A stretch of DNA of 64,000 bases from a virus: IMG/VR virus record IMGVR_UViG_3300008255_000003, positions 1 through 64,000 of that record. One strand, 5' to 3'. Under the pieces are notes generated by a model. The model ran no database searches. It saw only the letters and a program-made list of their open reading frames with translations, and had not been told where the DNA came from. Made by a program: the position numbers and the translations under genes. Of this stretch, positions 3,441 to 61,028 are shown piece by piece. The first letter of the stretch is position 1. Every line of letters starts with the position of its first letter.

Positions 3441-4291
3441 TGGCGTCTACGAACAGAATGAGACATCCTTATCCAGACCAGTATGCGACTGATTGGTGGG
3501 CTGACTTTAGGTCATTCGCAAACAGCCTAGACGCCGCAGACTTCGAGTCTAGGGATGATCGCTTGCTCATGATGGTCGGTGGCGGCACGGTGACTGTCAG
3601 CGCGTCTGGCGAGGTTGTTTGGACTGAGGACATTATCCTTATCCACGGCGTGACTGGAGCGACATGCACCATCGCGGCAGGGAGCCTTACCTTGCCCAAT
3701 GGCGGCATTGCCCATGCAACCGTTGCACGCGGCTCCACTGAGTCATACGTTAGTGCTTTGACTGTCACTCAGTCACTCACCCCACAGGGTGCATCAGTTG
3801 TCCCTATTTTTGCCAGGAATGGCAATCAAGTGTGGATGCGACAGCGCGGTGTGATCTCGGTGGGATCTGCTCTTGAGCGCGGCTTTGTGCCAGGTCAAGA
3901 CAAGCTTATAAGGCGGCTGCCTCTTGTTGTGAATCGCACTGAGGGCATAGAAAGTGTTGTCCTTGGAAGGGTGACGCTCAATTCTGATGATTATGATTTA
4001 GCGGGTGCGTTGTCCTTGGGTTTTGACCTTGTGGTCGAGTCTCAAATCACCACCTTGGGGCAGACGGCCAACCTGTCATTTCACAATGTCACTGGAGCCC
4101 CGGTCTTAATCACGGACTTCACTCAATCGAGCCTAACGCCCACGATTAATACGGTGACGTTTGTGCCGCCACTGGGGACAAGTCAGACGTTTGAGTTAAG
4201 GGGCGGGCTTGATGCCCTAGGCGGACCATACCTGCCTACCGATCTATTGCAGGTCTGGCAGGCTTATATCAAGATCACTAACACCTACTGA
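3440..4291 (+). CDS. Hypothetical virion/baseplate-associated protein
   Basis: Translationally coupled (TGATG) within the baseplate operon; beta-rich composition. Confidence 0.6.
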   Translation: MASTNRMRHPYPDQYATDWWADFRSFANSLDAADFESRDDRLLMMVGGGTVTVSASGEVVWTEDIILIHGVTGATCTIAAGSLTLPNGGIAHATVARGSTESYVSALTVTQSLTPQGASVVPIFARNGNQVWMRQRGVISVGSALERGFVPGQDKLIRRLPLVVNRTEGIESVVLGRVTLNSDDYDLAGALSLGFDLVVESQITTLGQTANLSFHNVTGAPVLITDFTQSSLTPTINTVTFVPPLGTSQTFELRGGLDALGGPYLPTDLLQVWQAYIKITNTY

Positions 4292-4299
4292 GGCGCGCG

Positions 4300-4779
4300 A
4301 TGACCCTTCCATTTACTGTCGCCACTAATGTCTATCAGAACGTTGTAATCAGGCACATCTTGGAGGCCGGGTTTAACTTCGATGCTGAGCTGCCACCTGG
4401 CAATGGCGAGCGCCAGTCAGCTCTTAATAGTAGCGTGGTGATCTTCAACGGCGTGACCAAGGGCGGTCTTATGTCGTTTGGTGGTGACTACCGTAAGCTC
4501 AAGTGGTTGAGTTTAAGCTTTCAGGATGCAAGTTCATGGGAGTTTGGGGTGATGAGGTCTATCAGTGAAAGCATCACTGATGAGCTAAAGCTCTACGATT
4601 CAGTTACGCACGCATCAGATCCTAGCCCTATGGCCATATCGACACCTACAAGGGTAGCGCTGAGGATCACTGAGGGCTTTGATATTCATCCTGGCGACAA
4701 GGTGTTTTTCAGGACGGCAGGTGCTACCGCGCAGCTTTTCGCTGAGGTTCTAGCTTACCCAGTCTTAGACCCGAGTTGA
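4300..4779 (+). CDS. Hypothetical protein in baseplate operon
   Basis: Fills the gap between neighbours with 3-8 nt spacing. Confidence 0.6.
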   Translation: MTLPFTVATNVYQNVVIRHILEAGFNFDAELPPGNGERQSALNSSVVIFNGVTKGGLMSFGGDYRKLKWLSLSFQDASSWEFGVMRSISESITDELKLYDSVTHASDPSPMAISTPTRVALRITEGFDIHPGDKVFFRTAGATAQLFAEVLAYPVLDPS

Positions 4780-4782
4780 TCT

Positions 4783-6228
4783 ATGGACTATGGATTTGGA
4801 ACATCGCCTTTTGGGCTTAATCAGTTTGGCCGTGCAGACAGCGCGCAGGGGGCGGTCTGGTTTAGATCTATACCCCAGTCGGTGCGCCTTCAAGACGCTG
4901 AAGAGTCTGGCGATCTTGAGGCCCTTATTAGTCCGTTCATTGATGAGCTAAGACGCATTCACACCAACTCCGTCAGCGAGATGCTTGATGGTCTTAGCGC
5001 GGTTACGGCAAGGGCGTCTTCTGAGCATCGACTGACCCTTGCCGTGTCTTCGGTGGTGAACGACCCCGGCACTACGATCAAGCGGGTGATCCTCACTGAC
5101 ACGCCTGGCAACAAGGCTGCGTTGCTTGAGATGTGGCCAGCCTCAAAACCAACAACCTCGTTTGGTGTTATAGATGGCTGGAGGGCGCTGATAGACTCCT
5201 CACTCTATGTCATCACGAAGGTTAGGGCTGATGAGCTTTATTTTGAGGTTAGGACAACGCAAGACATCGCGTCTGAGATCACCGTGCAGCCTCCTGATCT
5301 TTTGAGTCTGTTAGGCGCAGCTAGGGGGATGATTGTTGACCGTCAAGACCCTGTGCCCTTCACAAGGCGAGCGCTCTACAGGCACACACTCATAAGAGAT
5401 CTGAAGGTGTGCGCTAGGCTATTCAGACTTATAGGTTTGCTTTATGGCCTTGTGTTTGAAGTGAGTGCGCTCTATTGCATCAGTCTCGACTGGTACAACG
5501 CAATCGTAGCATCAAGCCCAGCCAATGCTTTTGAGATACCCCAAGGCAGCGGCCACTATTACACCGACCTAGTGCCATACGGGATCTTCTTTGATGAGAT
5601 CCCAGCAGACGTTGTGCCGCTCGATACTTCTGAGGATGTTGATTTTAGCCTTGAGGTTACAGTAGCCACGAACACCACTGGGAACACATGGTGTTTGGAT
5701 GTTGCTGTGGCCGACAGGGGCAAGCTGCTCAATATCCTCAAGCTAGGCCACTGGTCATTCATAGACGCTGACGGTAACGCCTACTGGATAGAGTCTGTTG
5801 ACGCCTCGGTGGGCTTTCAGTTCTGCGTCTTATCGCTTGGTGCTCCGACGTTAGGGGTTGGCACGCTCCGACTTAAGGTTAGGGAGGTCTGCCCGCCTGG
5901 ATATAAGGCGGCAGCAGCCTATCGAATTGTTATCACGCCTGGTGAGGTTCTGACCGTAGCTGGCGCCGATCTGGCCAGGGTTTACAGTCGCGCCGAAGAG
6001 AAGATCAACTTCTACACCCCGACTCATATCAGGCTCTTATCTCTAGTGTTTACAGCTCGCCAGTCAAACACCATCAGTGCTATTGCGGGCGTGTCAGGTC
6101 AGGATACTATCAACGATGGGATCATTGTCCCTGTCTTTGAGACGGAGACGTTTGATGCAGTTGCGGCAGATGCCCAACCGTTGGATACTGGTGCATTCGT
6201 AGTCATTCTGACATCTACAATCACATAA
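4783..6228 (+). CDS. Baseplate wedge protein (P2 gpI / gp7-like, tentative)
   Basis: L.LLGA.RG...D...P..F.R; ..I..Y.PTHI.L near the C-terminus; position after the J-like gene. Confidence 0.55.
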   Translation: MDYGFGTSPFGLNQFGRADSAQGAVWFRSIPQSVRLQDAEESGDLEALISPFIDELRRIHTNSVSEMLDGLSAVTARASSEHRLTLAVSSVVNDPGTTIKRVILTDTPGNKAALLEMWPASKPTTSFGVIDGWRALIDSSLYVITKVRADELYFEVRTTQDIASEITVQPPDLLSLLGAARGMIVDRQDPVPFTRRALYRHTLIRDLKVCARLFRLIGLLYGLVFEVSALYCISLDWYNAIVASSPANAFEIPQGSGHYYTDLVPYGIFFDEIPADVVPLDTSEDVDFSLEVTVATNTTGNTWCLDVAVADRGKLLNILKLGHWSFIDADGNAYWIESVDASVGFQFCVLSLGAPTLGVGTLRLKVREVCPPGYKAAAAYRIVITPGEVLTVAGADLARVYSRAEEKINFYTPTHIRLLSLVFTARQSNTISAIAGVSGQDTINDGIIVPVFETETFDAVAADAQPLDTGAFVVILTSTIT

Positions 6229-6260
6229 CATGCAACCGTTGCATGGTTAGGAGATAGAAA

Positions 6261-6797
6261 ATGGCGTTTAGGGCTGTATTTACAGACAATGGCCGTGAGT
6301 TCATGGCGCGGTTTAATGCCCGTTATACTGAGTGGTATGATTGGGGCTATCGCATGTTCTATGACGCAAGGTGGGGCGAAGGTGGATATGAGACGGTCAG
6401 TGGCGTCTTGGTGCCCAAAGACCCGTCTGCATTTGCTTCAGCGAACAACCTCCAAGTTGTCTTAGACGCGCCGAGCTATCCAGACTTCAACGCCTACTCC
6501 ACACCACCTGGCACGATCTTGATCGATCAGCTCACGGAGATCTTTTACCTCGGCGGAGGCAACAGGACGATGCGGGTGCGCGGCCACTTGGATACTGGCG
6601 ACGAGAATGACGACGGCACTGGCAACAGCCCGCACTTCTTTGAGTGCGGCATCTTTGACAATGCTTATGACATCTTGCAGGTGCGCACTGAGACTGGCGT
6701 AACGGCTAACAACCTAATGTTTTACGGCACTTTTGATGAGGTCGTTAAGACAATCACAAGACAACATGACGTAGACTTTGATACTAACTTCAAGTGA
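6261..6797 (+). CDS. Tail-fibre collar / baseplate-like protein
   Basis: GGAG RBS; N-terminal A..TD.GRE and C-terminal ECGIFD...MFY.TF..V.K pattern; precedes the tail fibre. Confidence 0.45.
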   Translation: MAFRAVFTDNGREFMARFNARYTEWYDWGYRMFYDARWGEGGYETVSGVLVPKDPSAFASANNLQVVLDAPSYPDFNAYSTPPGTILIDQLTEIFYLGGGNRTMRVRGHLDTGDENDDGTGNSPHFFECGIFDNAYDILQVRTETGVTANNLMFYGTFDEVVKTITRQHDVDFDTNFK

Positions 6798-9700: not shown

Positions 9701-9800
9701 GGTTGGCTTTGGTTCTTAAAAGATGGTGACTGCCGGGGTCGTTCTGATAGTTTAAGGGACATGCAACGGTTGCATGTCCCTTAAACTTATGAGGTGTAGG

Positions 9801-12040: not shown

Positions 12041-12069
12041 TTGCCAATAAGCTCATCGGCCTCTAATGT
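12041..12069 (+). promoter_or_regulatory. Sigma70-like promoter upstream of candidate ncRNA
   Basis: TTGCCA-N17-TAATGT. Confidence 0.5.
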
Positions 12070-12075
12070 CTTTTT

Positions 12076-12625
12076 CAGAGCCAAGGAGCATTGGCTTGGA
12101 CATCTGGAAGGTTTCAAGCACCATCATTCTTTGCGTGATGGTGTGAAAGTAGGCGTCCAAGCCATTAAGATGCTGCGGGTAAAAGTGAAGGCGTGTCACG
12201 GCATTATATGCCAATATAGCACGACTGGACCATTACCAAGCCTCTTTGACCGTGGTAGGGTGAAAACACCACCAGCCCAATCCCTTCCTTGGGCTGGTTA
12301 AGAATCAAGGGGTTTACCTTTATTGATTCTGAACAACGCTAAGCCTGGCGTTAGCAAAGTTCGCACCGTTACCACTTTAGCCACTGTTGCTAGGCTTTAA
12401 GGTCGCATGGCAGTCATAAGTGGAGTTATGGTGTGAAACCCCCCTCGCCTAACACCCGTAGTAAGACTCCTTACACGGCATGGGTGTTAGGCGAAAACAA
12501 CACAGCACTGATCACGCTGTGCAAATTCAGGATCGGTGGTTGAGTTAGGCAGTGAAGCCGGGTCCATAGAGCGTGACGTTACTCTATGCGTCTGGTGGAG
12601 TCCGATGATTCTCTTGGCCTGTCCT
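12076..12625 (+). ncRNA. Candidate large structured non-coding RNA (~550 nt)
   Basis: No convincing ORF or RBS. Perfect stems: 12092-12101/12155-12164, 12119-12126/12136-12143, 12271-12280/12289-12298, 12301-12308/12323-12330, 12445-12457/12482-12494, 12501-12506/12516-12521, 12565-12571/12582-12588. The 5' and 3' ends pair. Bounded by a promoter and a terminator. Confidence 0.55.
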
Positions 12626-12628
12626 TGT

Positions 12629-12669
12629 AAAAATGCCCTACTGGCTTAAACTGCCAGTAGGGCATTTTT
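12629..12669 (+). terminator. Intrinsic terminator (bidirectional geometry)
   Basis: 17-bp perfect arms AAAAATGCCCTACTGGC / GCCAGTAGGGCATTTTT. Confidence 0.85.
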
Positions 12670-13972: not shown

Positions 13973-14070
13973 TGTTTTTTTATGAGCTTAATAGTACGAT
14001 GTTTTCGTAGCGAAACATGCAACCGTTGCACGTTTAAATAAGCAACCATCGCATCCATCATGGTTTCAAA

Positions 14071-14724
14071 ATGAAGCTTACAGAAGAGTCTATCAAGAGC
14101 ATCGCAGCCACCCTTAACGATCCCCTTGCATGGCGCGACCTTGGTTCTGACCTGCTCTACTTTCAATTCAATGCGACGAAAGCAGACAAGATGACCTTAA
14201 GGAAGATGCTCAAGAGTAAGCGCCTTAAGACTTGGGTTACTGGTGAGTTTGAAGATGTGATCGAAGACTTCGATCGCGTCTTCGGACCTGATGTTGACCG
14301 CTTTGTGCGCTCTTCATTCTCTAAGCTGCCGCCCGAGCTTAGGAGCTTACTTAGGGATCTTAAGCAAGCTAATGCGCCTGACTTTAGCTTCAGACTCACT
14401 GGAGTCGTAGACTGGCTTATTCAGTATGGTGATCTTGGTGAGCCCGAGTATCACTTTAAGAAGCTTGGCTTTAAGCCTGTCTACGGCGGGTATAACTTTT
14501 CAATCCTTGAGGCTATCGCATCATCGAGCGACCCCAACTCAACCAAGACGGACGCGATGCTAAAGTCTTATGATCTAACCTCACTGGGCTTCGTGGACGG
14601 TTGGCTTAGGGTTTTGGTGGTGGAGGCTATCTGGGATGAGATTCCCGAAGAGTACGTCGGTCGCCTTATGGAGTCGCGCGAGCCCACCATTGACTCTATC
14701 ATTGAGTCTTACTTCAGCGTCTAA
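14071..14724 (+). CDS. Hypothetical protein with ESY-like motif at the C-terminus
   Basis: Ends IDSIIESYFSV*; dyads on both sides. Confidence 0.7.
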   Translation: MKLTEESIKSIAATLNDPLAWRDLGSDLLYFQFNATKADKMTLRKMLKSKRLKTWVTGEFEDVIEDFDRVFGPDVDRFVRSSFSKLPPELRSLLRDLKQANAPDFSFRLTGVVDWLIQYGDLGEPEYHFKKLGFKPVYGGYNFSILEAIASSSDPNSTKTDAMLKSYDLTSLGFVDGWLRVLVVEAIWDEIPEEYVGRLMESREPTIDSIIESYFSV

Positions 14725-14755
14725 ACATGCAACGGTTGCGTGCCAAGGAAACACC

Positions 14756-17170: not shown

Positions 17171-17238
17171 GTTGTTAATGCTAGCCTATGTTTGTAGTCA
17201 AACATGCAACGGTTGCATGTCCAGATTGGAGTTTTGCG

Positions 17239-18726
17239 ATGACTGTTCTAAATCTTGTCGAGTCATACATCTTAGGCGAAGCGGCGCGCTGGAAGCGAGA
17301 GGGTGTAAAGATAGAGAAGCCAGAAGAGACGGTGGAGTCTTATATCGGCAAGCCTGGCCACTACATCTCGTTCACTGGTCTGCCCAAACTTGGGATCAAT
17401 CCTCAGTCCAAGTTTAAGACACCATTGGCTATCTACACATATGCTCTTGATGACCCCTGGTTTGCCCGTACATGGGCGACACACAAAGAGACGGCCAAGG
17501 GGTTCCCCTTTAGGCCTGAACAGCCTTACATCCAAATCATGAAGCTCAAGAGCCTCAATGGCCTCGTGGTGTTCGATCGTTCGGGAGCAATCATTCATGG
17601 CGCCAATCTGATTGATGCTGCCCTCAAGGCTATCGAGGGTGATGATTGGGCTGATGCTGTGGCGCTCGCCAGGGATGAGTCTAAGAGGTGGATGTCAGAC
17701 TTCGGGTCTGAATCATTGAAGGTGCAGCGCGTCTGGGCTGTCACTAGGGCTAAGGCGATGATCGACACGCAAGGCGGAGGTAGTGAGATTGCCAGATGGG
17801 GTAAGATCCTCATGAGCCTTGGAATCATGGCTGTAGAGGATCGTGGTGCTGGCATGATTCACGAAAATGAACCACACCAGGCAGCTATCCTCTCAATGGC
17901 CGCAGTTGATCGCATCGCACAGGTCGAAAATCCGTTACCAGAAGCGATAAGCGTTAAGCCTGTTAGGGGCTCGGGCAAGTTCAAGCGAGAGTTCAAGCAG
18001 CACTATCAGGACTATATCGACATCATCAATAAGTTCAGGGCATTAGGCGACGTCACCAGTGTGACAAGCATCGACACCGCTCTTGAGTACATGCTTAGGG
18101 ATAAGCCGCTCTATATACGCCAGAAGGATCTTGAGAAGTGGGATGCGAGAGTCGTGGTGCTCAATGAGCTTTATGACTACATCACCAAGGATGAGATAAA
18201 TCGATCATTCTTTACGCCAAATGGTAAGGGTCGGGTGATGGGCAAGATCTCTTATGAGTTAAGGGGTTCTGTTGGTGAGCTTGCCATTGGAGGTATGTTG
18301 GTTTCAAGGGCCTTACAGGTAACTGTGCCGAGCCTATTCTTTGATAACACGGGTCTTTTCTCTAAGACTACTCAAGCCAGGCTCCCAAGTGTTGGTGTGA
18401 GCAATACGGTGAAGTTCAACATCCCAGAGATAGTCTTTAAGAATGAGGTGATCTCGAAAGCATCATTCCCAGACTTAAACTTGAGGACAGAGCCTGGACG
18501 CGGCTCCACCTCGTTAGCTCTTTTCAGTAATTGCAGACTGTCTTCAAATCAAGTCACACCAGATGATGTCAAAAGGTTTAACGATCTAATCAGTCGTGGT
18601 GCTATGAACAGTTCAGACGCTGATGATCTTAACTCTGCTGTGATGCGATGCTTTAACGGGCTCTTTAAACGTGAGAGTAGACCAGTGGTTACTATTGGCA
18701 AGTCGGTTAGGTTTGTGGAGTATTAG
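17239..18726 (+). CDS. ESY-leader family B protein, copy 1 (conserved enzyme-like N-domain)
   Basis: GGAG RBS; MTVLNLVESYILGEAARWKREG; SFT.LPKLGINP, TPL.IYTY, DRG.G.IH.NEPHQA. Confidence 0.85.
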   Translation: MTVLNLVESYILGEAARWKREGVKIEKPEETVESYIGKPGHYISFTGLPKLGINPQSKFKTPLAIYTYALDDPWFARTWATHKETAKGFPFRPEQPYIQIMKLKSLNGLVVFDRSGAIIHGANLIDAALKAIEGDDWADAVALARDESKRWMSDFGSESLKVQRVWAVTRAKAMIDTQGGGSEIARWGKILMSLGIMAVEDRGAGMIHENEPHQAAILSMAAVDRIAQVENPLPEAISVKPVRGSGKFKREFKQHYQDYIDIINKFRALGDVTSVTSIDTALEYMLRDKPLYIRQKDLEKWDARVVVLNELYDYITKDEINRSFFTPNGKGRVMGKISYELRGSVGELAIGGMLVSRALQVTVPSLFFDNTGLFSKTTQARLPSVGVSNTVKFNIPEIVFKNEVISKASFPDLNLRTEPGRGSTSLALFSNCRLSSNQVTPDDVKRFNDLISRGAMNSSDADDLNSAVMRCFNGLFKRESRPVVTIGKSVRFVEY

Positions 18727-18746
18727 ACGTGCAACCGTTGCACGCT

Positions 18747-18788
18747 CAAACAAGAGAGCCGCCCAGATATGGGCGGCTCTCTTGTTTG
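18747..18788. terminator. Bidirectional terminator between convergent genes
   Basis: 18-bp perfect arms CAAACAAGAGAGCCGCCC / GGGCGGCTCTCTTGTTTG. Confidence 0.8.
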
Positions 18789-23603: not shown

Positions 23604-23663
23604 TCCAGACCTCCAAAGTCAAACATGCAACCGTTGCATGTTTGAGACTCATTAGGCCACTGA

Positions 23664-24994: not shown

Positions 24995-25063
24995 TCACCT
25001 TGGTTTAATGTCTAACCCTGGCGTACAACGGTTGCATGTCAGGGTTTTCTTTTTGGAGTAGAT

Positions 25064-27699: not shown

Positions 27700-27784
27700 T
27701 TCTATTGACGGGCGGCATAACCGCCCGTTAGTCTTTTGATGGTCAGACACGCAACGGTTGCATGTTTGGTTTTGGAGATATTAA

Positions 27785-29596: not shown

Positions 29597-29617
29597 GACA
29601 TGCAACCGTTGCACGTC

Positions 29618-32190: not shown

Positions 32191-32238
32191 TAACGCAGCA
32201 GACATGCAACGGTTGCATGTCTGCGCTTGGAGGTTGTG

Positions 32239-33096: not shown

Positions 33097-33142
33097 ACCC
33101 CTATAGCAAGGCCTGCAACCGTTGCAGGTCTTGGAGGTGTAT

Positions 33143-35000: not shown

Positions 35001-35040
35001 AAAAAGAGGCCCCATGCAACCGTTGCATGGGGCTTTTCTT
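35001..35040. terminator. Terminator-like hairpin built on a dyad copy
   Basis: AAAAAGAGGCCCCATGCAAC-C-GTTGCATGGGGCTTTTCTT between convergent genes. Confidence 0.6.
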
Positions 35041-38065: not shown

Positions 38066-38153
38066 TTCATGCCCCCTGGGAATGTGCGCTAAGTCAATTA
38101 TTAACCTGATGCCTGTTACTTCATAGTCCTTATGCGCGTGCAACGGTTGCACG

Positions 38154-41158: not shown

Positions 41159-41177
41159 ACATGCAACCGTTGCACGT

Positions 41178-43507: not shown

Positions 43508-43539
43508 GTGAAAGGGCTACCACACAGTAGCCCTGATTC

Positions 43540-44390
43540 ATTGACGTTAAACTACTCGGCCCAAACCTGCAACGGTTGCATCCCTACTTCACAGCCTCAC
43601 GACATCCTAGACACTTTCCGAGCACAGCTTACGGCGGCACTCACTCACTAACCTCTAAATCCCTTATATCATCCCTTATTAAATCCAACCAAATCAACTC
43701 CAGAATCAACTTTTACCTCACACCATAACTTTCCCTACTCCATAGAATGCCACCCATCCGACATTCACACTTCAAACATCCCCAAGACCACATCAAATGA
43801 TCATCACTTTCAACCCCTATAAAAACACCCACTCTTCATAGACCCCCTCAACCAACCCCCCTTCATGGTGCATAACCACCCCATACATCCTATGGTGCAA
43901 TACATCGTATAGAACATCATCCCTTACCCATACTGACACCGTAGTGAGTTACGTCTGCACCATAACGAGTGACGATTACACCATAAGGCCTCTATGGTGC
44001 ATGATGACGGGAAAAGACATTTCGCTCCGCACCCCCACCCCCCTTTGAAAAAACTCAGGGGGGAGCTGCTCTGTTTTTTTTCCCAAGCACCATTGGGGGA
44101 TTTTTCAAAAGGGGCAGGGTGTGTCCCTATGGTGGAGGCATAGAGTCCTATGGTGGAGGCATAGAGTCCTATGGTGGAGGCATAGAGTCCTATGGTGGAG
44201 GCATAGAGTCCTATGGTGGCGGGAGGGGGTCGCGCGAGGGGAGTGACCTGTGGTGGTGGGGGTATGAGTGTACGGGGAGTGTGCGGGGGTCAATGTCAGA
44301 CGTGCAACCGTTGCATGTTGGAATGATGGGGGTCGGTGTTAGAATGGGGTTCGTGGCGAGATGTAAACAACGCACCATAGAGAGGTATGG
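43540..44390. other. Origin-like non-coding region at a transcription divergence point
   Basis: C/A-rich + strand to ~44045 switching to G/T-rich after ~44110; inverted repeat at the switch; 11 exact TATGGTG/CACCATA copies; dyads at 43566 and 44301. Confidence 0.55.
44126..44219 (+). repeat. 21-bp tandem repeat CCTATGGTGGAGGCATAGAGT x4.5
   Basis: Identical units at 44126, 44147, 44168, 44189 and a 10-bp partial at 44210; no spacers. Confidence 0.97.
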
Positions 44391-44391
44391 G

Positions 44392-45843: not shown

Positions 45844-45885
45844 TCATCACGCACGCAACGGTTGCATGTCATAAGGAATCCGACT

Positions 45886-46101
45886 ATGACTAAAAGTAAG
45901 AGAGAGATCTCGTCCAAAGATCCAAGGATAGAGATCGCGTGTGAGATTGAGAATATGGTGATGGTTGGTTTTTCCAGCGCCGAGTTGGCACCTAGTGATG
46001 AGCAGGGTTGGAATGTCGTAATGCTTATAGGTAGCGACGGCAAAAGATATAAAGTTACAGTCACAAGAGTTAACGAGAAGAGGGGTATGTCTGATGTCTA
46101 A
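45886..46101 (+). CDS. Small hypothetical protein
   Basis: AAGGA RBS, ATG 45886. Confidence 0.55.
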   Translation: MTKSKREISSKDPRIEIACEIENMVMVGFSSAELAPSDEQGWNVVMLIGSDGKRYKVTVTRVNEKRGMSDV

Positions 46102-47671
46102 GATTAAGGTGATAGAGCAGTACATGATCGGTGAGGCTGCTCGGTGGAAGAAAGAGGGTGCTGAGATCTTATCCCCCAAGGATGAGGTATCTTCATATAT
46201 AGGGGATGGTAAGGGCTATCACCTATTGAGCTTCACTGGTCTGCCCAAGCTCGGGATGAATCCCAAGTCGCACTACAACACCCCGCTCGGGATCTACACA
46301 TATTCTATGGTGGACCCTTGGTTTGAGAAGCAGTGGGAAGATCAGGACTTCCCCTTCGCGTCCGACCAGCCTTACATTCAGATCATGCGTCTAAGGTCTG
46401 AGCGCGGCCTTGTGGTGTTTAGCAACTCTGGCATCAGCATGGGGGGCTCGTTAATCAGCTCGCTCAATAAGAAGTATCAGAAGCTAATCACCCAGGGTGA
46501 TAATCGAGCGGTCGGTGCCCATAAGATGATGCTTCGTGGGAGTGAGTATTGGATTAATGAAGTAGCTGGAGGTGCTCGGGAAGTGCGCTGGTACTGGGCA
46601 TTCACTCAACATTACGCGAGCCTCATTGAGGGTGAGTCTGGCAAGCCTGTCAGGGATTGGAAGCACCCTGGTCATATTCATAACAACGCGGCGTCTATCG
46701 CGGTGTGGTCTAAGGTCATGGTTGATGATGGTATCGTCGCCTTCGATGATAGGGGGACAGGAACCATTCACCCTGACGAGCCGCATCAGGCAGTCGTGCT
46801 TACCATGAAGGCTGTGCAGCATGTCGCGCAGATCTTGAATCCTGTTGGCGGTGCAAGTCAGAAGCTCTTTAAGCGTGGCGTAAAGCGTCAGGGTAGGATG
46901 ATCAACATCTTCACCAAGTGGGCTGTTGAGACTCGCAAGGCGTTTGAGGAGGCCTACGATAGGGTTGAGAAACTGTCGAAGTATGATGAGATCTCAAACC
47001 TTGGGGCCATGTTGTTGATCAGGAATTTCCTTGAGAATAGTGATGAGGACAATATAAAGGGCGTCACCAACCAAGGTATGACAGACTTTGAGAGCAATAA
47101 AATGCAGATAATCAACGCCACCCTGGCCTTGCACGAGAGGGTTGAGCTGGCCTTGGACATGGCTGGTGATAATAGGCTGCTGCGCGCCATTCTCTATGGC
47201 GAGAGTGCGCAGAGGATAAGGGCAAGCCTTAATATGGTGATAGCCTCTACAATGCTTGATCTCACCATAGATGAGTTTGTGGTGCAGGGCTCTACCATGC
47301 TTGAATCGCCTAGCAATGTGAGCGCTGGGCTGGCTGACCAGTTTGGCATAAGCATCACGGCTAGCATCTGGAATCTTAGGTTTAAGAGGATGGAAGTTAA
47401 CGTAGAGTCTTTTGGTGCTTTAAAGGGTCTTTTGACGGGCATGTCAAAAGACATGAATCACTTTATCTTCGAGGGCTGCGACATCAAAGTGCCGAAGCTG
47501 GACTTCACGCTTGCGACTAATATTGAGCTTGGTGATGATGAGCTTGAGAACGAAGAGTTCTTCGCGGTGCTTTTTAAAGACTACTTCATTAAGGACATGC
47601 CTAGGATCTTGGGCATCAGCGGCAAACCACTGTCTGTTGAGGTTAAGGACTGTACTTTCGAGTTGGTCTGA
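46094..47671 (+). CDS. ESY-leader family B protein, copy 5
   Basis: MSKIKVIEQYMIGEAARWKKEG; conserved blocks; ends KDCTFELV*. Confidence 0.88.
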   Translation: MSKIKVIEQYMIGEAARWKKEGAEILSPKDEVSSYIGDGKGYHLLSFTGLPKLGMNPKSHYNTPLGIYTYSMVDPWFEKQWEDQDFPFASDQPYIQIMRLRSERGLVVFSNSGISMGGSLISSLNKKYQKLITQGDNRAVGAHKMMLRGSEYWINEVAGGAREVRWYWAFTQHYASLIEGESGKPVRDWKHPGHIHNNAASIAVWSKVMVDDGIVAFDDRGTGTIHPDEPHQAVVLTMKAVQHVAQILNPVGGASQKLFKRGVKRQGRMINIFTKWAVETRKAFEEAYDRVEKLSKYDEISNLGAMLLIRNFLENSDEDNIKGVTNQGMTDFESNKMQIINATLALHERVELALDMAGDNRLLRAILYGESAQRIRASLNMVIASTMLDLTIDEFVVQGSTMLESPSNVSAGLADQFGISITASIWNLRFKRMEVNVESFGALKGLLTGMSKDMNHFIFEGCDIKVPKLDFTLATNIELGDDELENEEFFAVLFKDYFIKDMPRILGISGKPLSVEVKDCTFELV

Positions 47672-47750
47672 TAAGATGCAACGGTTGCATGTTTGATATA
47701 GGTTGTGTTCTTATCAATGCGGGTCTGATGTTGTGTCAGACCCGTAAACT

Positions 47751-47933: not shown

Positions 47934-48053
47934 AACACGCAACCGTTGCATGTCTAAAATATGGCTTGCGCGGCTCATGCTTCTGGGTTTAGTCTTCTTG
48001 TGTTGCCGGGCGCGTTGTTAAACGTCCGGCTTGGACTTCAAGTGAGGTAGGTA

Positions 48054-48329
48054 ATGGATGGTCTTGACGCTATGGCGCGCGACGATGGTTCAATCATGCG
48101 CTGGATCGGCCCATTCTGGGTTGAGGTATCCTTTGGCTTTGAGGGTCTTGAGCGCTATTGGACTTTTAGAGTGTCATCGCGCAAGGGTGATTCTGACTAC
48201 ACCTGCCCTCATAGGTTTAAGACTAGGCGCCATGCGCTTGAGTCAGCGCAGGACTATGTGATGACGCTGGCGATCAGCGTGACACATGATCTCACTAAGT
48301 GGATGACAGAAACGCGTAACGCAAGATGA
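48054..48329 (+). CDS. Hypothetical protein
   Basis: GAGG RBS. Confidence 0.6.
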   Translation: MDGLDAMARDDGSIMRWIGPFWVEVSFGFEGLERYWTFRVSSRKGDSDYTCPHRFKTRRHALESAQDYVMTLAISVTHDLTKWMTETRNAR

Positions 48330-49277: not shown

Positions 49278-49341
49278 AACCCATCACAACCCAAACAGGG
49301 ATGCAACGGTTGCATCCCTGTTCATTCTTCAAGGTGAAGAT

Positions 49342-52513: not shown

Positions 52514-52652
52514 TGCCCCAAGAGTCGCAAAAACAGCCCTCATGCAACAGTTGCATTGGGGCTGTTTTTTGTGCTTTCCTGCACCATAATTAGCCCCTAA
52601 CATACAACATCCAGTGCCCACCAAACCCCAGAAACACTATATGGAGTGTGAC

Positions 52653-55367
52653 ATGAGTTCTCTTGATAATAAGTGCGGTTGGCGTCAAGTCTCTCACCAT
52701 GAAGACCCCTACGCTGACATTACTTTTGAGACTTCTGACGTGACGATTAAGGGCGGTAAGGACAAGCCTGACTTCGTGCAAAAGGGTGTGTCGTTCCCAT
52801 CCTTCTACAGCGAGACGTCGCGTAAGGTCGTGGCCAATAAATACTTCTACGGCACCAGGGGTTCTAGGGAGCGCGAGCACTCGATGGCTCATATCGTCGA
52901 TCGTGTGTCTGCCAAGCTTGCAACCTGGGGTGAGGAGCAGGGCTACTTCCCTGACGGTGATAGGCAGCGCGAAGAGTTCTTTAATACGCTTCGTTTCACA
53001 CTTATCAATCAGTACGCCGCCTTTAACTCACCAGTGTGGTTTAACCTGGGCACTCCAGAGCCGCAGCAAGCAAGCGCGTGTTTCATCAACTCGGTCGAGG
53101 ACTCGATTCAGTCGATCATCAACCTTGGCGCTACTGAGATGATGGTGTTTAAGGGCGGATCAGGGGCCGGTGTGAACGTCTCAAGGCTGCGCGGCAAGCA
53201 AGAGCCCCTTAAGGGTGGGGGCGTCTCTAGCGGTCCACTGAGCTTCATGAGGGCCTGGGATGAGGCGGCAGGATCAATCAAGTCAGGCGGCAAAACAAGG
53301 CGTGCGGCTAAGATGGTGGTGATGGACGTTGATCACCCTGACATTATGGAGTTCATCGCCTGTAAGGGTATTGAAGAGAAAAAGGCCCAAGCCCTTATCG
53401 CTGCTGGTTTCGATGGGAGCTTTGATGCTGAGAATGGCGCGTATGCAACCGTTGCATTCCAGAATGCCAATCACTCGGTGTGCATGTCTGATGAGTTCAT
53501 GGACGCAGTGGTCAACGATGATCACTTCAGGCTCGAATGGCGTACAGATCCTAGCAAGGCTGAGGTGGTCAAGGCTCGCAACATCATGTCTGCCGCATGT
53601 CAATCATGCTGGGAGTCGGGCGACCCTGGCGTCCAGTTTGGTGACACCATCAATAAGTGGCATACCTGCCCCAACGATGGCCGTATCGTGGCATCTAACC
53701 CATGCTCCGAGTATTTCCACCTCAATGACACGTCGTGCAACCTGGCCTCACTTAATCTTATGAGGTTCGTGATATTTGAGAACGGTCGCGCAGTGGGCTT
53801 TGATTTTGCTGCGTTTTACAATGCTAGCTATCTCATGGCCCTCGCCTTGGACATCATCATCGACAAGGCCCATTATCCAACTGAGCAGTTGGCAATCGAG
53901 ACTAAGAAGTCTCGCACCATAGGTTTAGGCTTTGCAAACCTTGGTGCTGTAATCATGGCTCTCGGCCTGCCTTATGGTTCTAAAGAGGCGTGCAGGCTCG
54001 CAGCCACGATCACCCATGTGATGAATGCAGCGGCCTACATTAGAAGTGCTAATACCTGCTTAGACCTTGAGCTTGCGCCATTCGAGCGACTTGATCGCAA
54101 CCGTGAGGCTATGTCTAACGTTCTTGGGATGCACGCTGAGGCATTTTTAACGCTTAGGGATGAGACGGATGACAAGCGTTTTGGCTTGGACTCCAATGTT
54201 ATCGACATGAGCTTGAGGGCTTTGTCGAACCTGTCAAGAAATGTGCGTAAGGGTGCCAATCTGCGCAACGCTCAAGCAACTGTTCTTGCCCCGACTGGCA
54301 CCATCTCATTCATGATGGGGTGCGACACTACTGGCGTTGAGCCTGTCCTTGGCCTTGTGAGCTACAAGCAGTTGGTTGGTGGAGGCTTCCTTAAGCTGAC
54401 ACTCGACTGCACCAGATCTGCGCTGCTCAACCTCGGCTACTCGCCCAGCGAGACTGAAGAGGCCCTTTGTCACATCGAAGACCACGACAGCCTTGATGGC
54501 TTTAAGCTCAAGCGTTCAACTGATGCTGAGGTGTTCAAGACATCATTCTCAACATCCCCAGAATATACTCTCGACTGGAAGGCTCATGTTGACATGATGG
54601 CAGCCTGTCAGCCTGCGCTTAGTGGTGCAATATCAAAGACGGTTAACATCAATGAAGATGCTACGCCGAAGGATATTGAGGACATCACCTTCTATTCTTG
54701 GCGCGCTGGGCTCAAGTCGGTGGCGATCTACCGTAACAACTGCAAGCAGTCACAGCCTCTCACGCTCAAGTCTAGTGGTGATAAGAATGTCGAAGATCCG
54801 ATCGAGTCCTTAAGGGAGCATGGTGTCTTAGTGCATGGCGAGCGCAGGAGGCTTGAGAAGACGCGCAAGAGCAGGACGCATACCTTCTCGATCGGCGGTC
54901 AGAAGGGCTACATCATCATTGGTGAGTATGAGGACGGCTCGCCTGGTGAGATCTTTATCAACTTTGCCAAGATGGGGTCTACAGCGCGCGGCTTTGTTGA
55001 CTCGTTCGCCATAGGTCTAAGCCTTGGCCTTCAATATGGGGTGCCGCTTGAGGTGTTCCATAACAAGTATCGCCACATGAGCTTTTCACCATCAGGCTTC
55101 ACGGACAACCCAGAGATCCGCAAGGCCAGCTCCATCCCCGATTACGTCTTGCGCTGGGTTGCGCAAGAGTATTTCAATGATGGTGCAGAAGAGCGTGACG
55201 AGGCCCAAGATGATCAGGTGGTGTCTGACATTGCCAAGATCAGGTCCAAGTCAAAGCTCAAGACAAGCGCCACTGGGGATCTGTGTTCTGTCTGTGGGGG
55301 TCAGTTAGTCCAGGCTGGAACGTGTCACACTTGCACTGAATGCGGCTCTTCTACGGGCTGCGGCTAG
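52653..55367 (+). CDS. nrdJ: Class II (adenosylcobalamin-dependent) ribonucleotide reductase with C-terminal TSCPD-like domain and Zn ribbon
   Basis: QASACFI, GGKTRRAAKM, ASNPCSEY, SCNLASLNL, LAPTGTIS..MGCDTTGVEP, ISKTVN; terminal CSVC...CTECG..GCG; start 52653 (GGAG RBS). Confidence 0.95.
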   Translation: MSSLDNKCGWRQVSHHEDPYADITFETSDVTIKGGKDKPDFVQKGVSFPSFYSETSRKVVANKYFYGTRGSREREHSMAHIVDRVSAKLATWGEEQGYFPDGDRQREEFFNTLRFTLINQYAAFNSPVWFNLGTPEPQQASACFINSVEDSIQSIINLGATEMMVFKGGSGAGVNVSRLRGKQEPLKGGGVSSGPLSFMRAWDEAAGSIKSGGKTRRAAKMVVMDVDHPDIMEFIACKGIEEKKAQALIAAGFDGSFDAENGAYATVAFQNANHSVCMSDEFMDAVVNDDHFRLEWRTDPSKAEVVKARNIMSAACQSCWESGDPGVQFGDTINKWHTCPNDGRIVASNPCSEYFHLNDTSCNLASLNLMRFVIFENGRAVGFDFAAFYNASYLMALALDIIIDKAHYPTEQLAIETKKSRTIGLGFANLGAVIMALGLPYGSKEACRLAATITHVMNAAAYIRSANTCLDLELAPFERLDRNREAMSNVLGMHAEAFLTLRDETDDKRFGLDSNVIDMSLRALSNLSRNVRKGANLRNAQATVLAPTGTISFMMGCDTTGVEPVLGLVSYKQLVGGGFLKLTLDCTRSALLNLGYSPSETEEALCHIEDHDSLDGFKLKRSTDAEVFKTSFSTSPEYTLDWKAHVDMMAACQPALSGAISKTVNINEDATPKDIEDITFYSWRAGLKSVAIYRNNCKQSQPLTLKSSGDKNVEDPIESLREHGVLVHGERRRLEKTRKSRTHTFSIGGQKGYIIIGEYEDGSPGEIFINFAKMGSTARGFVDSFAIGLSLGLQYGVPLEVFHNKYRHMSFSPSGFTDNPEIRKASSIPDYVLRWVAQEYFNDGAEERDEAQDDQVVSDIAKIRSKSKLKTSATGDLCSVCGGQLVQAGTCHTCTECGSSTGCG

Positions 55368-55791: not shown

Positions 55792-55960
55792 TGACCTAAA
55801 ACATGCAACGGTTGCATGTCTGACTTTGGAAGTTCTATGTGGCTTGATGTCATGATCGGCAATCTCTTGAACGAGCTTGCGTGTTGTTTGTCTTCGTGCA
55901 GACTGCTTGTGCTCGTGCTCTTGATCCTGGCCATTGAGCCAACGTCAAACAAGGTGGATA

Positions 55961-58474: not shown

Positions 58475-58550
58475 CGCCTCACGCGCCAATGGTCGAGTGT
58501 TTTGGTTGTGAGACATGCAACGGTTGCGTGTCTCTATTTTGGAGAACATT

Positions 58551-59408
58551 ATGCACATTGAAGTTGACGTTATTGACGTTGGACGACTTGCGCCCGCCAA
58601 GTTTCATACTTTGAAGCAGTGGGTTGTTATCACGACTGAGCCCGCCGCTGGTAAAACGTCATTACTCAAGATGATGGCGTTTGGCCTATATGATTCAGTG
58701 ACGCAGCCTTCAAAGGCGCTTGATGGCTGCGTCACTGAGGTGTCTTGGACGCCTGAATCTTTGATGGCTCAGCGCTACAACGTCAGTCGTGGTCGAAGCT
58801 CGGCTAGATACTATGGCCTGACTGATGGTGATGTGCGCATCGGCATTGGATCATATAGGGCTTTGGATCGTGGTAGCGCTTTGCTATCGAACCTGCCCTT
58901 TAGGTTGGGGGTAAGTCACCTCGTAGACGAAGGCACCAGGGCTGCTGATGATTACGCTAGTTTGATGTTTAGGGCGCTCTGGCTTCAGCGCTTTTCTGAG
59001 CTTGAGACTGGGGTTAAATCTGACGTCTTGAGCCTGATGTTTGAGATGGTGTTTGGTCTTGCTGATATAGGTTGGGATCTTGGCGGGTTAGATGTCAACT
59101 CCCAAGGCATTACCTTGGGCGGCATAAGTAAGCGTTCTCACTCTACTTCTGAGTCGTCAATCCTGATGATCCTCGGGATGCTGGCCTTTACCGCTATTGA
59201 CAAGAAAGCTTGTGACGTTAGTGGTGTTGTTCTTATTGACGATGCGTTTAAGGACTTTACACCAACTCAGTCGATGGCACTGGTGAGCTGCCTGGGTAAA
59301 ATGTTCCCTGGGTTGACTTTCATCGCGACGGCAATACGCGACACCGACCTTCAGGCTGCTCTTGGTGAGTCTGGCGTTTGTGACTTGGTTTACTTGGAGT
59401 CGTTATGA
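58551..59408 (+). CDS. Degenerate ABC-type (AAA_21-like) ATPase
   Basis: PAAGKTSLLK, SHSTSE at the signature position, VVLIDDA, L...FPGLTFIATA; GGAG RBS, ATG 58551. Confidence 0.6.
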   Translation: MHIEVDVIDVGRLAPAKFHTLKQWVVITTEPAAGKTSLLKMMAFGLYDSVTQPSKALDGCVTEVSWTPESLMAQRYNVSRGRSSARYYGLTDGDVRIGIGSYRALDRGSALLSNLPFRLGVSHLVDEGTRAADDYASLMFRALWLQRFSELETGVKSDVLSLMFEMVFGLADIGWDLGGLDVNSQGITLGGISKRSHSTSESSILMILGMLAFTAIDKKACDVSGVVLIDDAFKDFTPTQSMALVSCLGKMFPGLTFIATAIRDTDLQAALGESGVCDLVYLESL

Positions 59409-60046
59409 GCAAGAATCGAAGGCTTCCACGCATACGGTTTTCGGACACGCACCCCAAGAAACAGGCCGAATATCTCTTGGCTCATGACAGGTATTATGAC
59501 GCCATCAAGGCCTGTTATGGCATTAAGGGTGAAGCAGAGCGATCTTTGATGATGCGCACCATTGCTAAGAAGCGCGATGAGGTGGAAAGCTTCTTACTCA
59601 ACGGGCGCTCAATGCCAGCCTTCGGTGGAACGGAGAAGCAGAACGCATGGTGCGAGAACATATTTTTAGACACCTTGCTTTGGCTTAGGGCTTGGCGTCA
59701 CTGGGCCTTAAACGCAGACATCAGGCACGGGCGCGTTAGCTCTGACTTTAGGCGTCAAAACATGCTGGAGTTGGCTGACATTTTCGAGCTTGAGAACGCC
59801 TTGGCTTGGATTGAGGTGGTTGACGTCCTTATCCCCATGACGGTGCATGGCCCTTACACCTTCAAAGAGCATCCAGACCGTTCAGACGTTCCTGGCGAGA
59901 TCGACGTTAGCCTTTATGCCCACCATGAAGAGCTGGCCTTTGAGAGCATCTCTGGATTCTTGAAGGCTCGTGAGAGTGTCTTTCTGTATGGTCATCCATA
60001 CGGCTTTAAAAAATATTACTTAATAAGTATTGACATTAAAGCTTGA
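59405..60046 (+). CDS. Hypothetical protein
   Basis: ATGA overlap; contains a GTEKQNAW motif. Confidence 0.65.
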   Translation: MSKNRRLPRIRFSDTHPKKQAEYLLAHDRYYDAIKACYGIKGEAERSLMMRTIAKKRDEVESFLLNGRSMPAFGGTEKQNAWCENIFLDTLLWLRAWRHWALNADIRHGRVSSDFRRQNMLELADIFELENALAWIEVVDVLIPMTVHGPYTFKEHPDRSDVPGEIDVSLYAHHEELAFESISGFLKARESVFLYGHPYGFKKYYLISIDIKA

Positions 60047-60057: not shown

Positions 60058-60100
60058 GCAACCCATGCAACGGTTGCATCCATAACTGATAAGGGGCTTT

Positions 60101-60343
60101 ATGAAGATCGCAACATGGAACGCTCATGCTTACGAGTTCCGCGCGCTTGACGCGCTAGGTTTGCCCTACAAGAGGGTCGGATACGCTGGTCTTTGCGTCA
60201 GCGATCACGCGATCGCTGGCATATACGGGGCGACGCCAGATATGCTCTGGGCGGACTCCAAGGATGAATATGAAAGATTGATGAAAGGTTTGACAAGGCT
60301 CAAAAATAACCTAGCCCGCGTAGACCGCTCGGAGCAGGCTTAA
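60101..60343 (+). CDS. Small hypothetical protein
   Basis: AGGGG RBS. Confidence 0.6.
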   Translation: MKIATWNAHAYEFRALDALGLPYKRVGYAGLCVSDHAIAGIYGATPDMLWADSKDEYERLMKGLTRLKNNLARVDRSEQA

Positions 60344-60399
60344 TCTCAATTACATAAAGAGCCCAGCCTAATGTAGGGCGGGGCTAATTTGGAGGCTCT

Positions 60400-60966
60400 A
60401 TGACAACGCAAGTTATGTTCGACGCAATGGCGGAATATGAGGATTATGAGACGCTTAACGAGGCTGGTCAGTTTGGGATCAGCGTGGAGCTTGGATGTCT
60501 CGAAGGCCTGATGGCCTTCGAGCTTCTGCGCAAGCTCTATCATCATGGGGCGACTGTCTTTGATCGTCTAGCGCTCGCGGCGATCCACACTGACCGCTTC
60601 ACCGATCGCGGCAATGCGGCGATCATTGAGGACTATTTTGCTTGGCTCAACACTGAGTGGCAGGAGGTCTGCGAGGAGAGTGGCTTTGCCTACGCCCCAG
60701 TGTGGCCAGAATATGATGGAAAAACCTTAAGTCATGTGACGGGCTCGGGGCAGACAACGTTCGAGCTTCTTCTGCATGAGGGCAGGGGCTCAACACTAAC
60801 AGTCACTAGGCTTGAGGACTTCGACATCGAAGACACGCGCGGCGAGTTGATCAGGAGTGTCATTAGGATGTTCGAGGGCTCGCGCTACGCGGCAATGCAG
60901 GTTATCGCAAGCCTAAGTTCGGATGAGTCGCGCGAGATACTCGCGCAGTACATCGCGACGGCCTAG
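60400..60966 (+). CDS. Acidic hypothetical protein
   Basis: GGAGG RBS. Confidence 0.65.
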   Translation: MTTQVMFDAMAEYEDYETLNEAGQFGISVELGCLEGLMAFELLRKLYHHGATVFDRLALAAIHTDRFTDRGNAAIIEDYFAWLNTEWQEVCEESGFAYAPVWPEYDGKTLSHVTGSGQTTFELLLHEGRGSTLTVTRLEDFDIEDTRGELIRSVIRMFEGSRYAAMQVIASLSSDESREILAQYIATA

Positions 60967-60991
60967 CATCACAAGCCTCCTATGATACAGT

Positions 60992-61028
60992 AAGCCAGAC
61001 ATGCAACGGTTGCGTGTCTGGCTTTTTT
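60992..61028 (+). terminator. Terminator-like hairpin built on a dyad copy
   Basis: AAGCCAGACATGCAAC-G-GTTGCGTGTCTGGCTT followed by a T-run. Confidence 0.6.

Follow-up and report, generated by a model that had tools for sequence, protein, structure and literature searches.

Large sets of dyad-symmetric repeats scattered over a whole phage genome have been described in Cluster O mycobacteriophages, which carry more than 30 invariant copies of a 17-bp dyad, TGTTCGG-N3-CCGAACA (PMC4351075). These repeats lie in short intergenic gaps as well as inside genes, have no clear orientation and are mostly located away from promoters; a dimeric DNA-binding protein was suggested as their reader and the function was left open (PMC4351075). 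Here we analyze an array of dyads in the phage IMGVR_UViG_3300008255_000003 (hereafter G0), a virus record of 129,896 bp, of which bases 1-64000 form the stretch under study (the window, 64,000 nucleotides). It resembles Cluster O in comprising dozens of inverted repeats in intergenic and coding DNA that are not tied to promoters, but differs from it in sequence, host group and phage type and in lacking the 3-bp A/T spacer; further, even spacing, a conserved binder gene and family-wide variants, all of which are considered below, were not reported for Cluster O (PMC4351075). Cluster O is the closest published description, yet the likeness is one of kind only. The reading that we favor, and to which we give about an even chance, is that the dyads are double-stranded sites of a two-fold symmetric homodimer, likely the phage protein W329 of family phrog_17202, and that they form an array serving the whole DNA molecule.

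Three further systems resemble this array in form. The KorB operators (OB) on plasmid RK2 are 13-bp perfect palindromes, TTTAGC-S-GCTAAA, with a single central S (structure 1r71); a dimer that has a ParB-type helix-turn-helix binds the dozen copies found around the replicon, many of which have no promoter nearby. The DNA-binding domain of KorB is among the best structural matches to W329 (Z-scores 7.1-7.6). However, KorB has the N-terminal CTPase domain of ParB and works together with KorA and IncC, whereas W329 has no such domain, and the phage system has 20-60 evenly spaced sites and a protein encoded in a recombination gene cassette. The Noc-binding sites (NBS) of Noc and the parS sites of ParB and Spo0J are 16-bp even-centered palindromes, like the variants we find in relatives of G0 and in the cultured phage DLP5. 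Noc has about 70 sites across the chromosome, and Noc, ParB and Spo0J are the best fold matches of W329 (Z-scores 8.3-9.3), but this likeness is middling and one of fold only, without sequence similarity, and since W329 lacks the CTPase domain it probably does not form a sliding clamp. The phage sites are palindromes of 15-23 bp with odd or even centers. We liken the system in form to KorB-OB, Noc-NBS and ParB-parS, but, as the ParB CTPase domain is absent, do not file it as a member of these families. The stoperators of cluster A mycobacteriophages (L5 gp71) are likewise numerous repressor sites at gene junctions; they are, however, asymmetric 13-bp sites that follow the direction of transcription, and the repressor of the temperate phage binds them as a monomer, whereas the G0 dyads are two-fold symmetric and free of orientation.

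G0 is a very distant T4-like myovirus with a terminal repeat of 123 bp and a coding fraction of about 92%. It encodes a gp23-type capsid protein, a baseplate wedge protein, a tail tube protein, UvsX, DnaB and a DnaG-like primase, as well as a B12-dependent ribonucleotide reductase and an RpoD-like sigma factor, and its life style looks lytic. A megablast search with the window against cultured phages gave no match, and the capsid protein is less than 30% identical to that of any cultured phage, its nearest relatives, encoded on contigs, having 65% and 38% identity.

The core of the dyad, GCAACSGTTGC, occurs 26 times exactly in the window, at the places given in the original prediction, compared to an average of 0.06 and at most 1 in dinucleotide-preserving shuffles of the window. 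Two copies with one mismatch, at 25025 (ACAACGGTTGC) and 52544 (GCAACAGTTGC), bring the number to the 28 that had been proposed as a minimum. Genome-wide there are 47 exact cores, as opposed to 0 in the reversed control. The palindrome had been described as 17 bp long; its symmetry was borne out, but the consensus is longer, comprising 23 bp with two-fold symmetry, A(G/A)ACATGCAAC-S-GTTGCATGT(C/T)T. Positions 1-5 on each side of the center are invariant and conservation declines outwards, where the variants of the flanks are, as had been noted, chiefly transitions (CAT/CGT/CAC). Of 48 copies, 47 have a central C or G, in either orientation. Outside G0, the 17-mer had only single, chance-level matches among GTDB species genomes, metagenome contigs and other viral contigs, and a search for other intergenic motifs in G0 yielded none besides the ribosome-binding site (RBS) TTTGGAG.

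The dyads had been thought to punctuate gene boundaries, which is correct for the majority: about 37-39 of the 47 copies (about 80%) are intergenic. Their usual layout is stop codon, dyad, Shine-Dalgarno sequence and start codon, with the dyad center 9-11 nt past the stop and 22-35 nt ahead of the start. Of 95 intergenic gaps of at least 30 nt, 34 bear a dyad, in any gene orientation (co-directional 21 of 62 and 2 of 8, convergent 6 of 12, divergent 4 of 12). In 17 of 26 co-directional junctions the central base is G on the coding strand. Matches to sigma-70-type promoters are not enriched (19 observed, 19.3 expected). At least 8 of the 47 copies, three of them in the window, are intragenic, so that gene boundaries do not account for the whole array. 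The intragenic copies occur in frames 0 and 2 in G0 and in frames 0, 1 and 2 in its relatives. In G0, the copy within the ribonucleotide reductase gene coincides with the conserved motif AY(A/T)TV(A/S)xQN, in a region that aligns to a solved homologue without gaps, and must therefore have arisen by substitution rather than by insertion. The copies in the window are:

3713..3729: dyad inside gene 3440-4291, in frame 0, encoding ATVA
6229..6245: dyad, intergenic, between the stop of 4783-6228 and the RBS of 6261-6797
9760..9776: dyad, intergenic, within a site-specific palindrome with 19-bp arms
14016..14032: dyad, intergenic, ahead of 14071-14724
14726..14742: dyad directly past the stop of 14071-14724; the start of the next gene is probably a downstream ATG
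17203..17219: dyad between a separate terminator (~17168) and the RBS of 17239-18726
18728..18744: dyad at a convergent junction, ahead of a separate bidirectional terminator (18753-18782)
23624..23640: dyad at a divergent junction, upstream of the minus-strand operon 23603-21703, which ends with an HTH_3 gene
25022..25038: one-mismatch dyad (ACAACGGTTGC) upstream of the DNA methylase gene 25064-26041
27748..27764: dyad between a separate terminator (~27734) and the RBS of 27785-28009
29599..29615: dyad at a convergent junction, ahead of a separate terminator (~29652)
32203..32219: dyad, intergenic, with 13-bp arms
33112..33128: dyad, intergenic, directly ahead of an RBS
35013..35029: dyad at the tip of a bidirectional intrinsic terminator, at a convergent junction
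38137..38153: dyad at the divergent junction between the sigma-factor operon and 38220-39713
41160..41176: dyad at the convergent junction between 39998-41158 and 41178-41846
43566..43582: dyad in the non-coding stretch 43508-44391
44301..44317: dyad in the same non-coding stretch, 43508-44391
45852..45868: dyad, intergenic, past 44866-45843
47675..47691: dyad directly past the stop of 46094-47671
47936..47952: dyad, intergenic, ahead of 48054-48329
49300..49316: dyad, intergenic, with 14-bp arms
52541..52557: one-mismatch dyad (GCAACAGTTGC, center A) at the tip of a bidirectional terminator ahead of the reductase gene
53442..53458: dyad inside the B12-dependent ribonucleotide reductase gene, over AY(A/T)TV(A/S)xQN, without an indel
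55802..55818: dyad, intergenic, in the stop-dyad-RBS layout
58514..58530: dyad, intergenic, ahead of 58551-59408
60064..60080: dyad, intergenic, between 59405-60046 and 60101-60343
61000..61016: dyad, intergenic, within a terminator-like hairpin followed by a T run

Related arrays are found in relatives of G0. A capsid-protein profile retrieved viral contigs of a clade at 35-39% identity (G1, G3, G4 and G5), of which G1 (133.7 kb) has 22 copies of CTGCAAT-YR-ATTGCAG, G3 (129.6 kb) has 8 copies of GCGCAAT-YR-ATTGCGC and G5 (199.6 kb) has 12 copies of GCGCAAG-CG-CTTGCGC. About half of these copies are intragenic. Iterated profile searches found only about 40 genes common to G0 and these relatives, and the site pattern that the distant phages share consists of variants of GCAA-N-(S/CG)-N-TTGC. 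In cultured phages we counted GCAA-N3-4-TTGC against a reversed control and obtained 52 vs 3 in L338C, 35 vs 0 in DLP5, 10 vs 0 in RcZahn, 19 vs 0 in HJ05, 59 vs 5 in RHph_I4, 18 vs 1 in RHph_Y1_11 and 19 vs 2 in LV6. L338C, RHph_I4, DLP5, RcZahn, HJ05 and LV6 are array-bearing siphoviruses. The accessible published accounts of DLP3/DLP5 and of L338C relatives do not mention the repeats.

Several of these arrays have peculiarities of their own. The array of the Rhizobium phage RHph_Y1_11 (MN988558.1) consists mostly of GCAAC-AA-ATTGC, which combines a C-type with a T-type half-site. In DLP5 (NC_042082.1), the 27 GCAAT-NN-ATTGC copies whose flanks could be read are centered on CA (18), TG (8) or TA (1) and never on CG, while CG dominates the centers of G1; the DLP5 pattern looks like consistent loss or avoidance of the central CpG. 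In G1, a CGG flank is present on one side in 9 of 9 sites with a TG/CA center, compared to 1 of 13 sites with a CG center, a linkage that could reflect either a compensating contact or shared descent of the copies. G5 has a second dyad, GGAAAACTCTAWGAGTTTTCC, with 10 copies clustered in 17 kb (genome 59984-76342), three of which adjoin or surround a GCAAG-type dyad or its degenerate version; this looks like a separate, local operator set.

The dyads are spaced more evenly than expected by chance. In G0, the coefficient of variation (CV) of the gaps between them is 0.587, compared to about 0.97 for uniform random placement, where none of 20,000 trials was as low, and to 0.88 when sites are drawn at random from the actual intergenic gaps (P=0.0006). 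From an intragenic copy to the nearest intergenic one the distance is 2,414 bp, compared to 1,361 bp for random coding positions (P=0.002). The spacing is also more even than chance in G1 (CV 0.527, P about 0.001), L338C (CV 0.608, P=1.5e-4) and DLP5 (CV 0.491, P=5e-5).

Palindromes between genes may act as DNA or, once transcribed, as RNA. The dyads could be hairpins in polycistronic mRNA that serve as 3' stabilizers, processing sites or terminator tips and are read by an RNA-binding protein or RNase, whose recognition the conservation would then mirror. Indeed, most copies follow a stop codon and precede the Shine-Dalgarno sequence of the next gene within a transcription unit. Site-specific complementary extensions are present in about 6-10 of the 47 copies, positions 12-14 pair above the cross-site expectation (0.40 vs 0.26), and some of the extended copies (35016, 64452, 70053, 61003), in part through T runs, are convincing bidirectional terminators. 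At the variable positions of the motif, however, covariation is absent: the complementarity of the two arms at positions 6-10 is nearly the same within one site as between different sites (0.85/0.86, 0.66/0.61, 0.89/0.84, 0.66/0.59 and 0.45/0.37). Transitions in a single arm yield 11 A:C or C:A mismatches on the mRNA strand vs 7 G:U wobbles. In every lineage the center, where the loop would form, is palindromic too (CSG, TCGA, GCGC), a property for which a hairpin loop has no need. Extended hairpins are absent from the 22 sites of G1, the spacer of L338C is variable and non-palindromic, conserved genes host copies in several frames, and the evenness is independent of the positions of the intergenic gaps. 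Neither is the dyad simply the terminator, since a separate terminator adjoins it in several places (17206, 18731, 27751, 29602, 92689, 110041). Counting each strand separately, 46 of 62 terminator-like hairpins have no dyad, and only a minority of the dyads, such as 35016, 61003, 64452 and 70053, form a G+C-rich hairpin directly followed by a T run; most have no T run. On balance we consider the RNA hairpin unlikely as the primary role of the dyads. The palindromy is that of two independent half-sites and is not upheld by base-pair compensation; we conclude that selection acts primarily on the double-stranded, two-fold symmetric sequence, its role as the tip of a hairpin being a secondary one. 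The data are better explained by a double-stranded DNA site that a two-fold symmetric protein recognizes than by an RNA hairpin.

The dyads could also be hairpins on single-stranded DNA, which would form on either strand and act, for example, as signals for lagging-strand priming or primosome assembly. Such signals would account for the strand symmetry and for a spacing reminiscent of Okazaki fragments: the sites are evenly spaced at 2-6 kb, their perfect symmetry would give the same hairpin from both strands, and these phages encode DnaB, a DnaG-like primase and a protein similar to single-stranded DNA-binding protein (SSB). Against this, base-pair covariation is absent outside the 5-bp core, the residual stem of 4-5 bp is weak, the L338C spacer varies and is not palindromic, and RHph_Y1_11 has mixed half-sites. 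We regard this explanation as highly unlikely.

The original prediction had proposed a binding site for one dimeric protein acting genome-wide. The behavior of the arms, the palindromic centers, the intragenic copies, the even spacing and the separate terminators all support this proposal, and a candidate for the dimeric binder, co-occurring with the arrays, was found in W329. This protein of 329 residues is encoded at genome positions 98523-99512, outside the window, and has homologues in all four relatives, so that the family is represented in G0, G1, G3, G4 and G5. Of 67 sampled members, 66 matched phrog_17202, a family without assigned function, and six weakly matched DUF3102. A profile search yielded 4,742 cluster representatives at E<=0.001. 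With W329 itself as query, neither a word-indexed homologue search nor tblastn against cultured phages gave any match, but tblastn with another family member found homologues in 45 cultured phages.

The genomic context of the gene is conserved. In G0 it is preceded by the genes of UvsX, a junction resolvase, a Cas4-like exonuclease and a RuvC-like resolvase, and the order RecA/UvsX, resolvase, exonuclease, RuvC and homologue recurs in L338C, DLP5 and RcZahn. In RHph_I4, RHph_Y1_11 and LV6, RuvC immediately precedes the homologue, and the Vibrio phage Ares1 has RecA followed by three unnamed genes and then the homologue. A dyad of the respective lineage is located between the stop codon of RuvC and the RBS of the W329 gene in G0, G1 and G3, and a copy just upstream of the homologue is also found in L338C, DLP5, RcZahn, HJ05 and RHph_I4. 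Elsewhere, positional conservation between G0 and G1 is weak, with three shared junctions.

A model of W329 built from an alignment of 67 sequences had a mean confidence (pLDDT) of 80.9. Among re-aligned Foldseek candidates, the DNA-binding domains of ParB, Spo0J, Noc and KorB took 12 of the first 13 places, with 6t1f as best match (Z-score 9.3, root-mean-square deviation (rmsd) 2.6 Å over 110 residues) and top Z-scores of 9.3, 9.3, 9.2, 8.6 and so on down to 7.1 for the KorB-operator complex. The protein Raf1 ranked sixth (Z-score 7.8; range 6.2-7.8), and the other unrelated matches scored 4.8 or less. In an unbiased structure search of 48,161 chains, Spo0J was first (8.3), with ParB-parS at 7.9, Raf1 at 7.7 and the KorB-operator complex at 7.6. 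Over both searches, the best ParB-type matches had Z-scores of 8.3-9.3 and rmsd values of 2.5-3.1 Å over 107-115 residues. From these models, the fold of W329 is likely a helix-turn-helix DNA-binding domain of the ParB/Spo0J/Noc/KorB type. The CTPase domain ParB_N (PF02195) gave no match at E<=1 in six-frame searches of G0, G1 and G3, while controls matched in 11 of 14 genomes; the N-terminus of W329 in G0 is instead a disordered basic tail rich in Lys, Ala and Pro.

W329 is also predicted to form a homodimer. The prediction for residues 69-329 scored 0.73, compared to 0.00 for the best of three controls; in the calibration of the prediction tool, its mark was reached by 20 of 30 true homodimers and by 1 of 23 monomers. 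Contacts agreed to at least 94% between runs and the pLDDT of the partner was at least 80; no solved structure is similar to W329 in sequence.

In an alignment of 13 homologues, numbered as in the G0 protein, two residues appear to track the variable base of the half-site. Residue 171 is Ser in phages with GCAAC half-sites (G0, L338C, RHph_I4, HJ05) and Thr in those with GCAAT (G1, G3, DLP5, RcZahn, LV6), and residue 198 is Arg in 4 of 4 C-type phages and Val in 4 of 5 T-type phages (Thr in LV6). The homologues are 18-40% identical, save for L338C/RHph_I4 (88%) and Ares1/LV6 (51%), and the G0 protein resembles the other C-type proteins no more than it does the T-type ones. The predicted dimer interface holds residues 170-171 and 197-200; residues 171 and 198 thus both map to the predicted dimer axis, where one would look for contacts to the base pairs beside the center of a dyad. 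We consider this covariation suggestive. The protein of RHph_Y1_11, with Ser at 171 and Ile at 198, is an informative odd case for models of specificity.

Other proteins conserved between G0 and its relatives were considered as binders and rejected: a 151-residue protein (65566-66021) is holin-like, a 320-residue protein (89677-90639) is SSB/gp32-like, with a zinc ribbon and a DDEDIPF tail, and a 240-residue protein (99602-100324) is probably the small terminase subunit. The second of these has a Cys-rich zinc-ribbon motif and a long linker rich in proline, glutamine and tyrosine ahead of its C-terminal DDEDIPF; as this ending is a hallmark of the bacterial SSB tail, the protein is probably a phage gp32/SSB-type protein that mimics the tip of the host SSB.

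A different phage protein could nevertheless read the dyads. The only small helix-turn-helix protein in G0 that Pfam recognizes is an HTH_3 protein of 86 residues (window 21703-21963, minus strand; E=8e-7), which might be a global transcriptional regulator; Xre-type dimers bind palindromes of this size, and the operon that encodes it starts right at the dyad at 23627. It has, however, no homologue in G1, G3, G4 or G5 (phmmer --max, E<=10), although G1, G3 and G5 have arrays, and most dyads lie away from promoter-like sites; sigma-70-type matches are about as frequent as expected. This makes it quite improbable that the HTH_3 protein is the binder.

The regulator might also be encoded by the host, for example as a member of the LacI/PurR family that the replicating phage DNA would titrate or recruit. 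The variants of G1, G3, G5 and DLP5 fit the operator pattern of the LacI family, TGNAANCGNTTNCA with a central CG, and GCGCAAGCGCTTGCGC of G5 resembles the PurR box of E. coli. In opposition to this, the spacing of the half-sites in G0 is odd, the CG center is absent from all 27 DLP5 copies, the spacer of L338C is free, and the motif shifts between phages together with the phage protein. Further, a decoy has no need of even spacing. The 17-mer occurs no more than once in any GTDB species genome, so that no host site at similar density was found, with the limit that the host of G0 was not identified; an atlas search with the sigma factor gave no clue to it. The LacI helix-turn-helix (PF00356) is absent at E<=1 from G0, G1 and G3. 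We consider a host regulator a very unlikely reader of the array.

Finally, high-copy palindromes that are mostly intergenic and occur in genome-specific variants recall selfish elements, and the linkage of center and flank in G1 (CGG flank in 9 of 9 vs 1 of 13 sites) might be seen as a trace of a mobile mini-palindrome that spread through the genome, similar to repetitive extragenic palindromes (REP) or miniature inverted-repeat transposable elements. Like the G0 dyads, REPs and the bacterial interspersed mosaic elements that they form (BIME) are short palindromes in high copy number just past genes, for which roles in mRNA stability, termination and supercoiling have been proposed, but they differ in being imperfect hairpins that are tagged with GTAG or CGTC and accompanied by a Y1 transposase (RAYT). 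The G0 dyads have neither the tag nor base-pair covariation, and the Y1 transposase (PF01797) is absent at E<=1 from G0, G1, G3 and G5. In addition, no indel accompanied the origin of the reductase-gene copy in a conserved motif, the intragenic copies fill gaps between the intergenic ones (P=0.002), and lineages whose motifs differ share conserved positions. The mobile palindrome is thus largely refuted and the least probable of the explanations we considered. On the features that define each class, REP/RAYT elements, stoperators and plain terminators were all rejected as the identity of the array.

This leaves the array of homodimer sites with W329 as likely binder, against which several observations weigh as well. 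The partial genome of G4 (62% G+C) has no GCAA-type array despite encoding a homologue, and neither does Ares1, which has 4 matches vs 4 in the control and yielded no array in a de novo palindrome scan. G4 and G5 have no dyad ahead of the homologue gene. L338C and RHph_I4 mix half-site spacers of 1 and 2 nt, and the half-sites of RHph_Y1_11 are mixed, both of which are awkward for a rigid dimer. In HJ05 and RcZahn, whose arrays are smaller, the evenness of the spacing does not reach significance, and the site-specific extension of about 6-10 of the 47 palindromes indicates some selection for folding. As to the protein, the E-values in Foldseek are about 1, Z-scores of 8-9 may reflect a common helical arrangement, with Raf1 scoring alongside, and sequence profiles of W329 did not match any solved structure, ParB and KorB included. 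The covariation of residues and half-sites comprises only about two independent contrasts per class, and a role in recombination specifically is read from the gene neighborhood alone.

If the dyads are indeed sites of a W329-like homodimer, each monomer would read one half-site, (C)ATGCAAC. The most likely binder, W329, would do so with a ParB-like core that has a basic tail in place of the CTPase domain. The array would act on the whole DNA molecule and not gene by gene, with selection maintaining one site per 2-3 kb; intergenic gaps would take up sites where this is cheap, and coding sequence would do so where gaps are scarce. As the sites are transcribed, they would also fold in mRNA, and the roughly 6-10 sites built into terminator hairpins would represent a secondary use. 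That W329 binds the dyads, and what the array does, we infer from the evidence above; its gene follows those of UvsX/RecA, the resolvase, the Cas4-like exonuclease and RuvC, which, together with the spacing, points to recombination-dependent replication or the processing of DNA ends rather than to promoter control. Of the roles named in the original prediction, a transcription roadblock, condensation or packaging, none is the one toward which the place of this gene directs us. A more specific version, which we find rather improbable but worth stating, is that array and binder form a protein-based, orientation-independent counterpart of Chi. Dimers every 2-3 kb would halt the Cas4-like exonuclease, or host RecBCD, at a broken end, the halted end would be passed to UvsX, and the break would turn into a recombination-dependent replication fork within a few kb. 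This would account for the fixed place of the gene in myoviruses and siphoviruses, for the even spacing and symmetry of the sites and for their presence in coding DNA.

Some features of G0 are of interest in their own right. Its RpoD-like sigma factor (window 36010-37746, minus strand) is full-length, with regions 1.2, 2, 3 and 4, and has no counterpart in G1, G3, G4 or G5. Among about 160 G0 proteins, with three genes spanning locus boundaries left out, Pfam and PHROGs recognized no DNA polymerase, sliding clamp or type II topoisomerase; the replication genes present are those of DnaB, a DnaB loader, primase, helicases and recombinase. The window further encodes a protein of more than 300 residues similar to 2H-phosphoesterases and 2'-5' RNA ligases (LigT family, E=6e-16), which hints at RNA repair or processing. 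About 600 bp at 12041-12669 have no convincing gene and end in a strong bidirectional terminator (12632/12666). A near letter-identical phage is present in contigs of a cold-spring run and, at low depth, in aquifer and hot-spring runs. Its environmental copies, from the cold-spring run and several aquifer runs, have 3 differences in 20 kb, of which none is at a dyad, so that these contigs do not inform on function; no RNA run is among those listed as containing the phage.

Genome-wide dyad arrays have been noticed before in few phages, such as the Cluster O mycobacteriophages, and neither their binder nor their function is known. The type described here, GCAA-N-center-N-TTGC, is tied to a single widespread family without assigned function, phrog_17202, which has thousands of cluster representatives. 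Since array and protein are paired in culturable phages of Rhizobium, Stenotrophomonas, Rhodobacter, Aeromonas and Vibrio, the relationship can be tested at the bench. If W329 binds the dyads, this would represent a mode of genome organization not described in the literature we searched, in which a ParB-like DNA-binding module works without a CTP switch on 20-60 evenly spaced sites and is linked to the recombination machinery of lytic phages.

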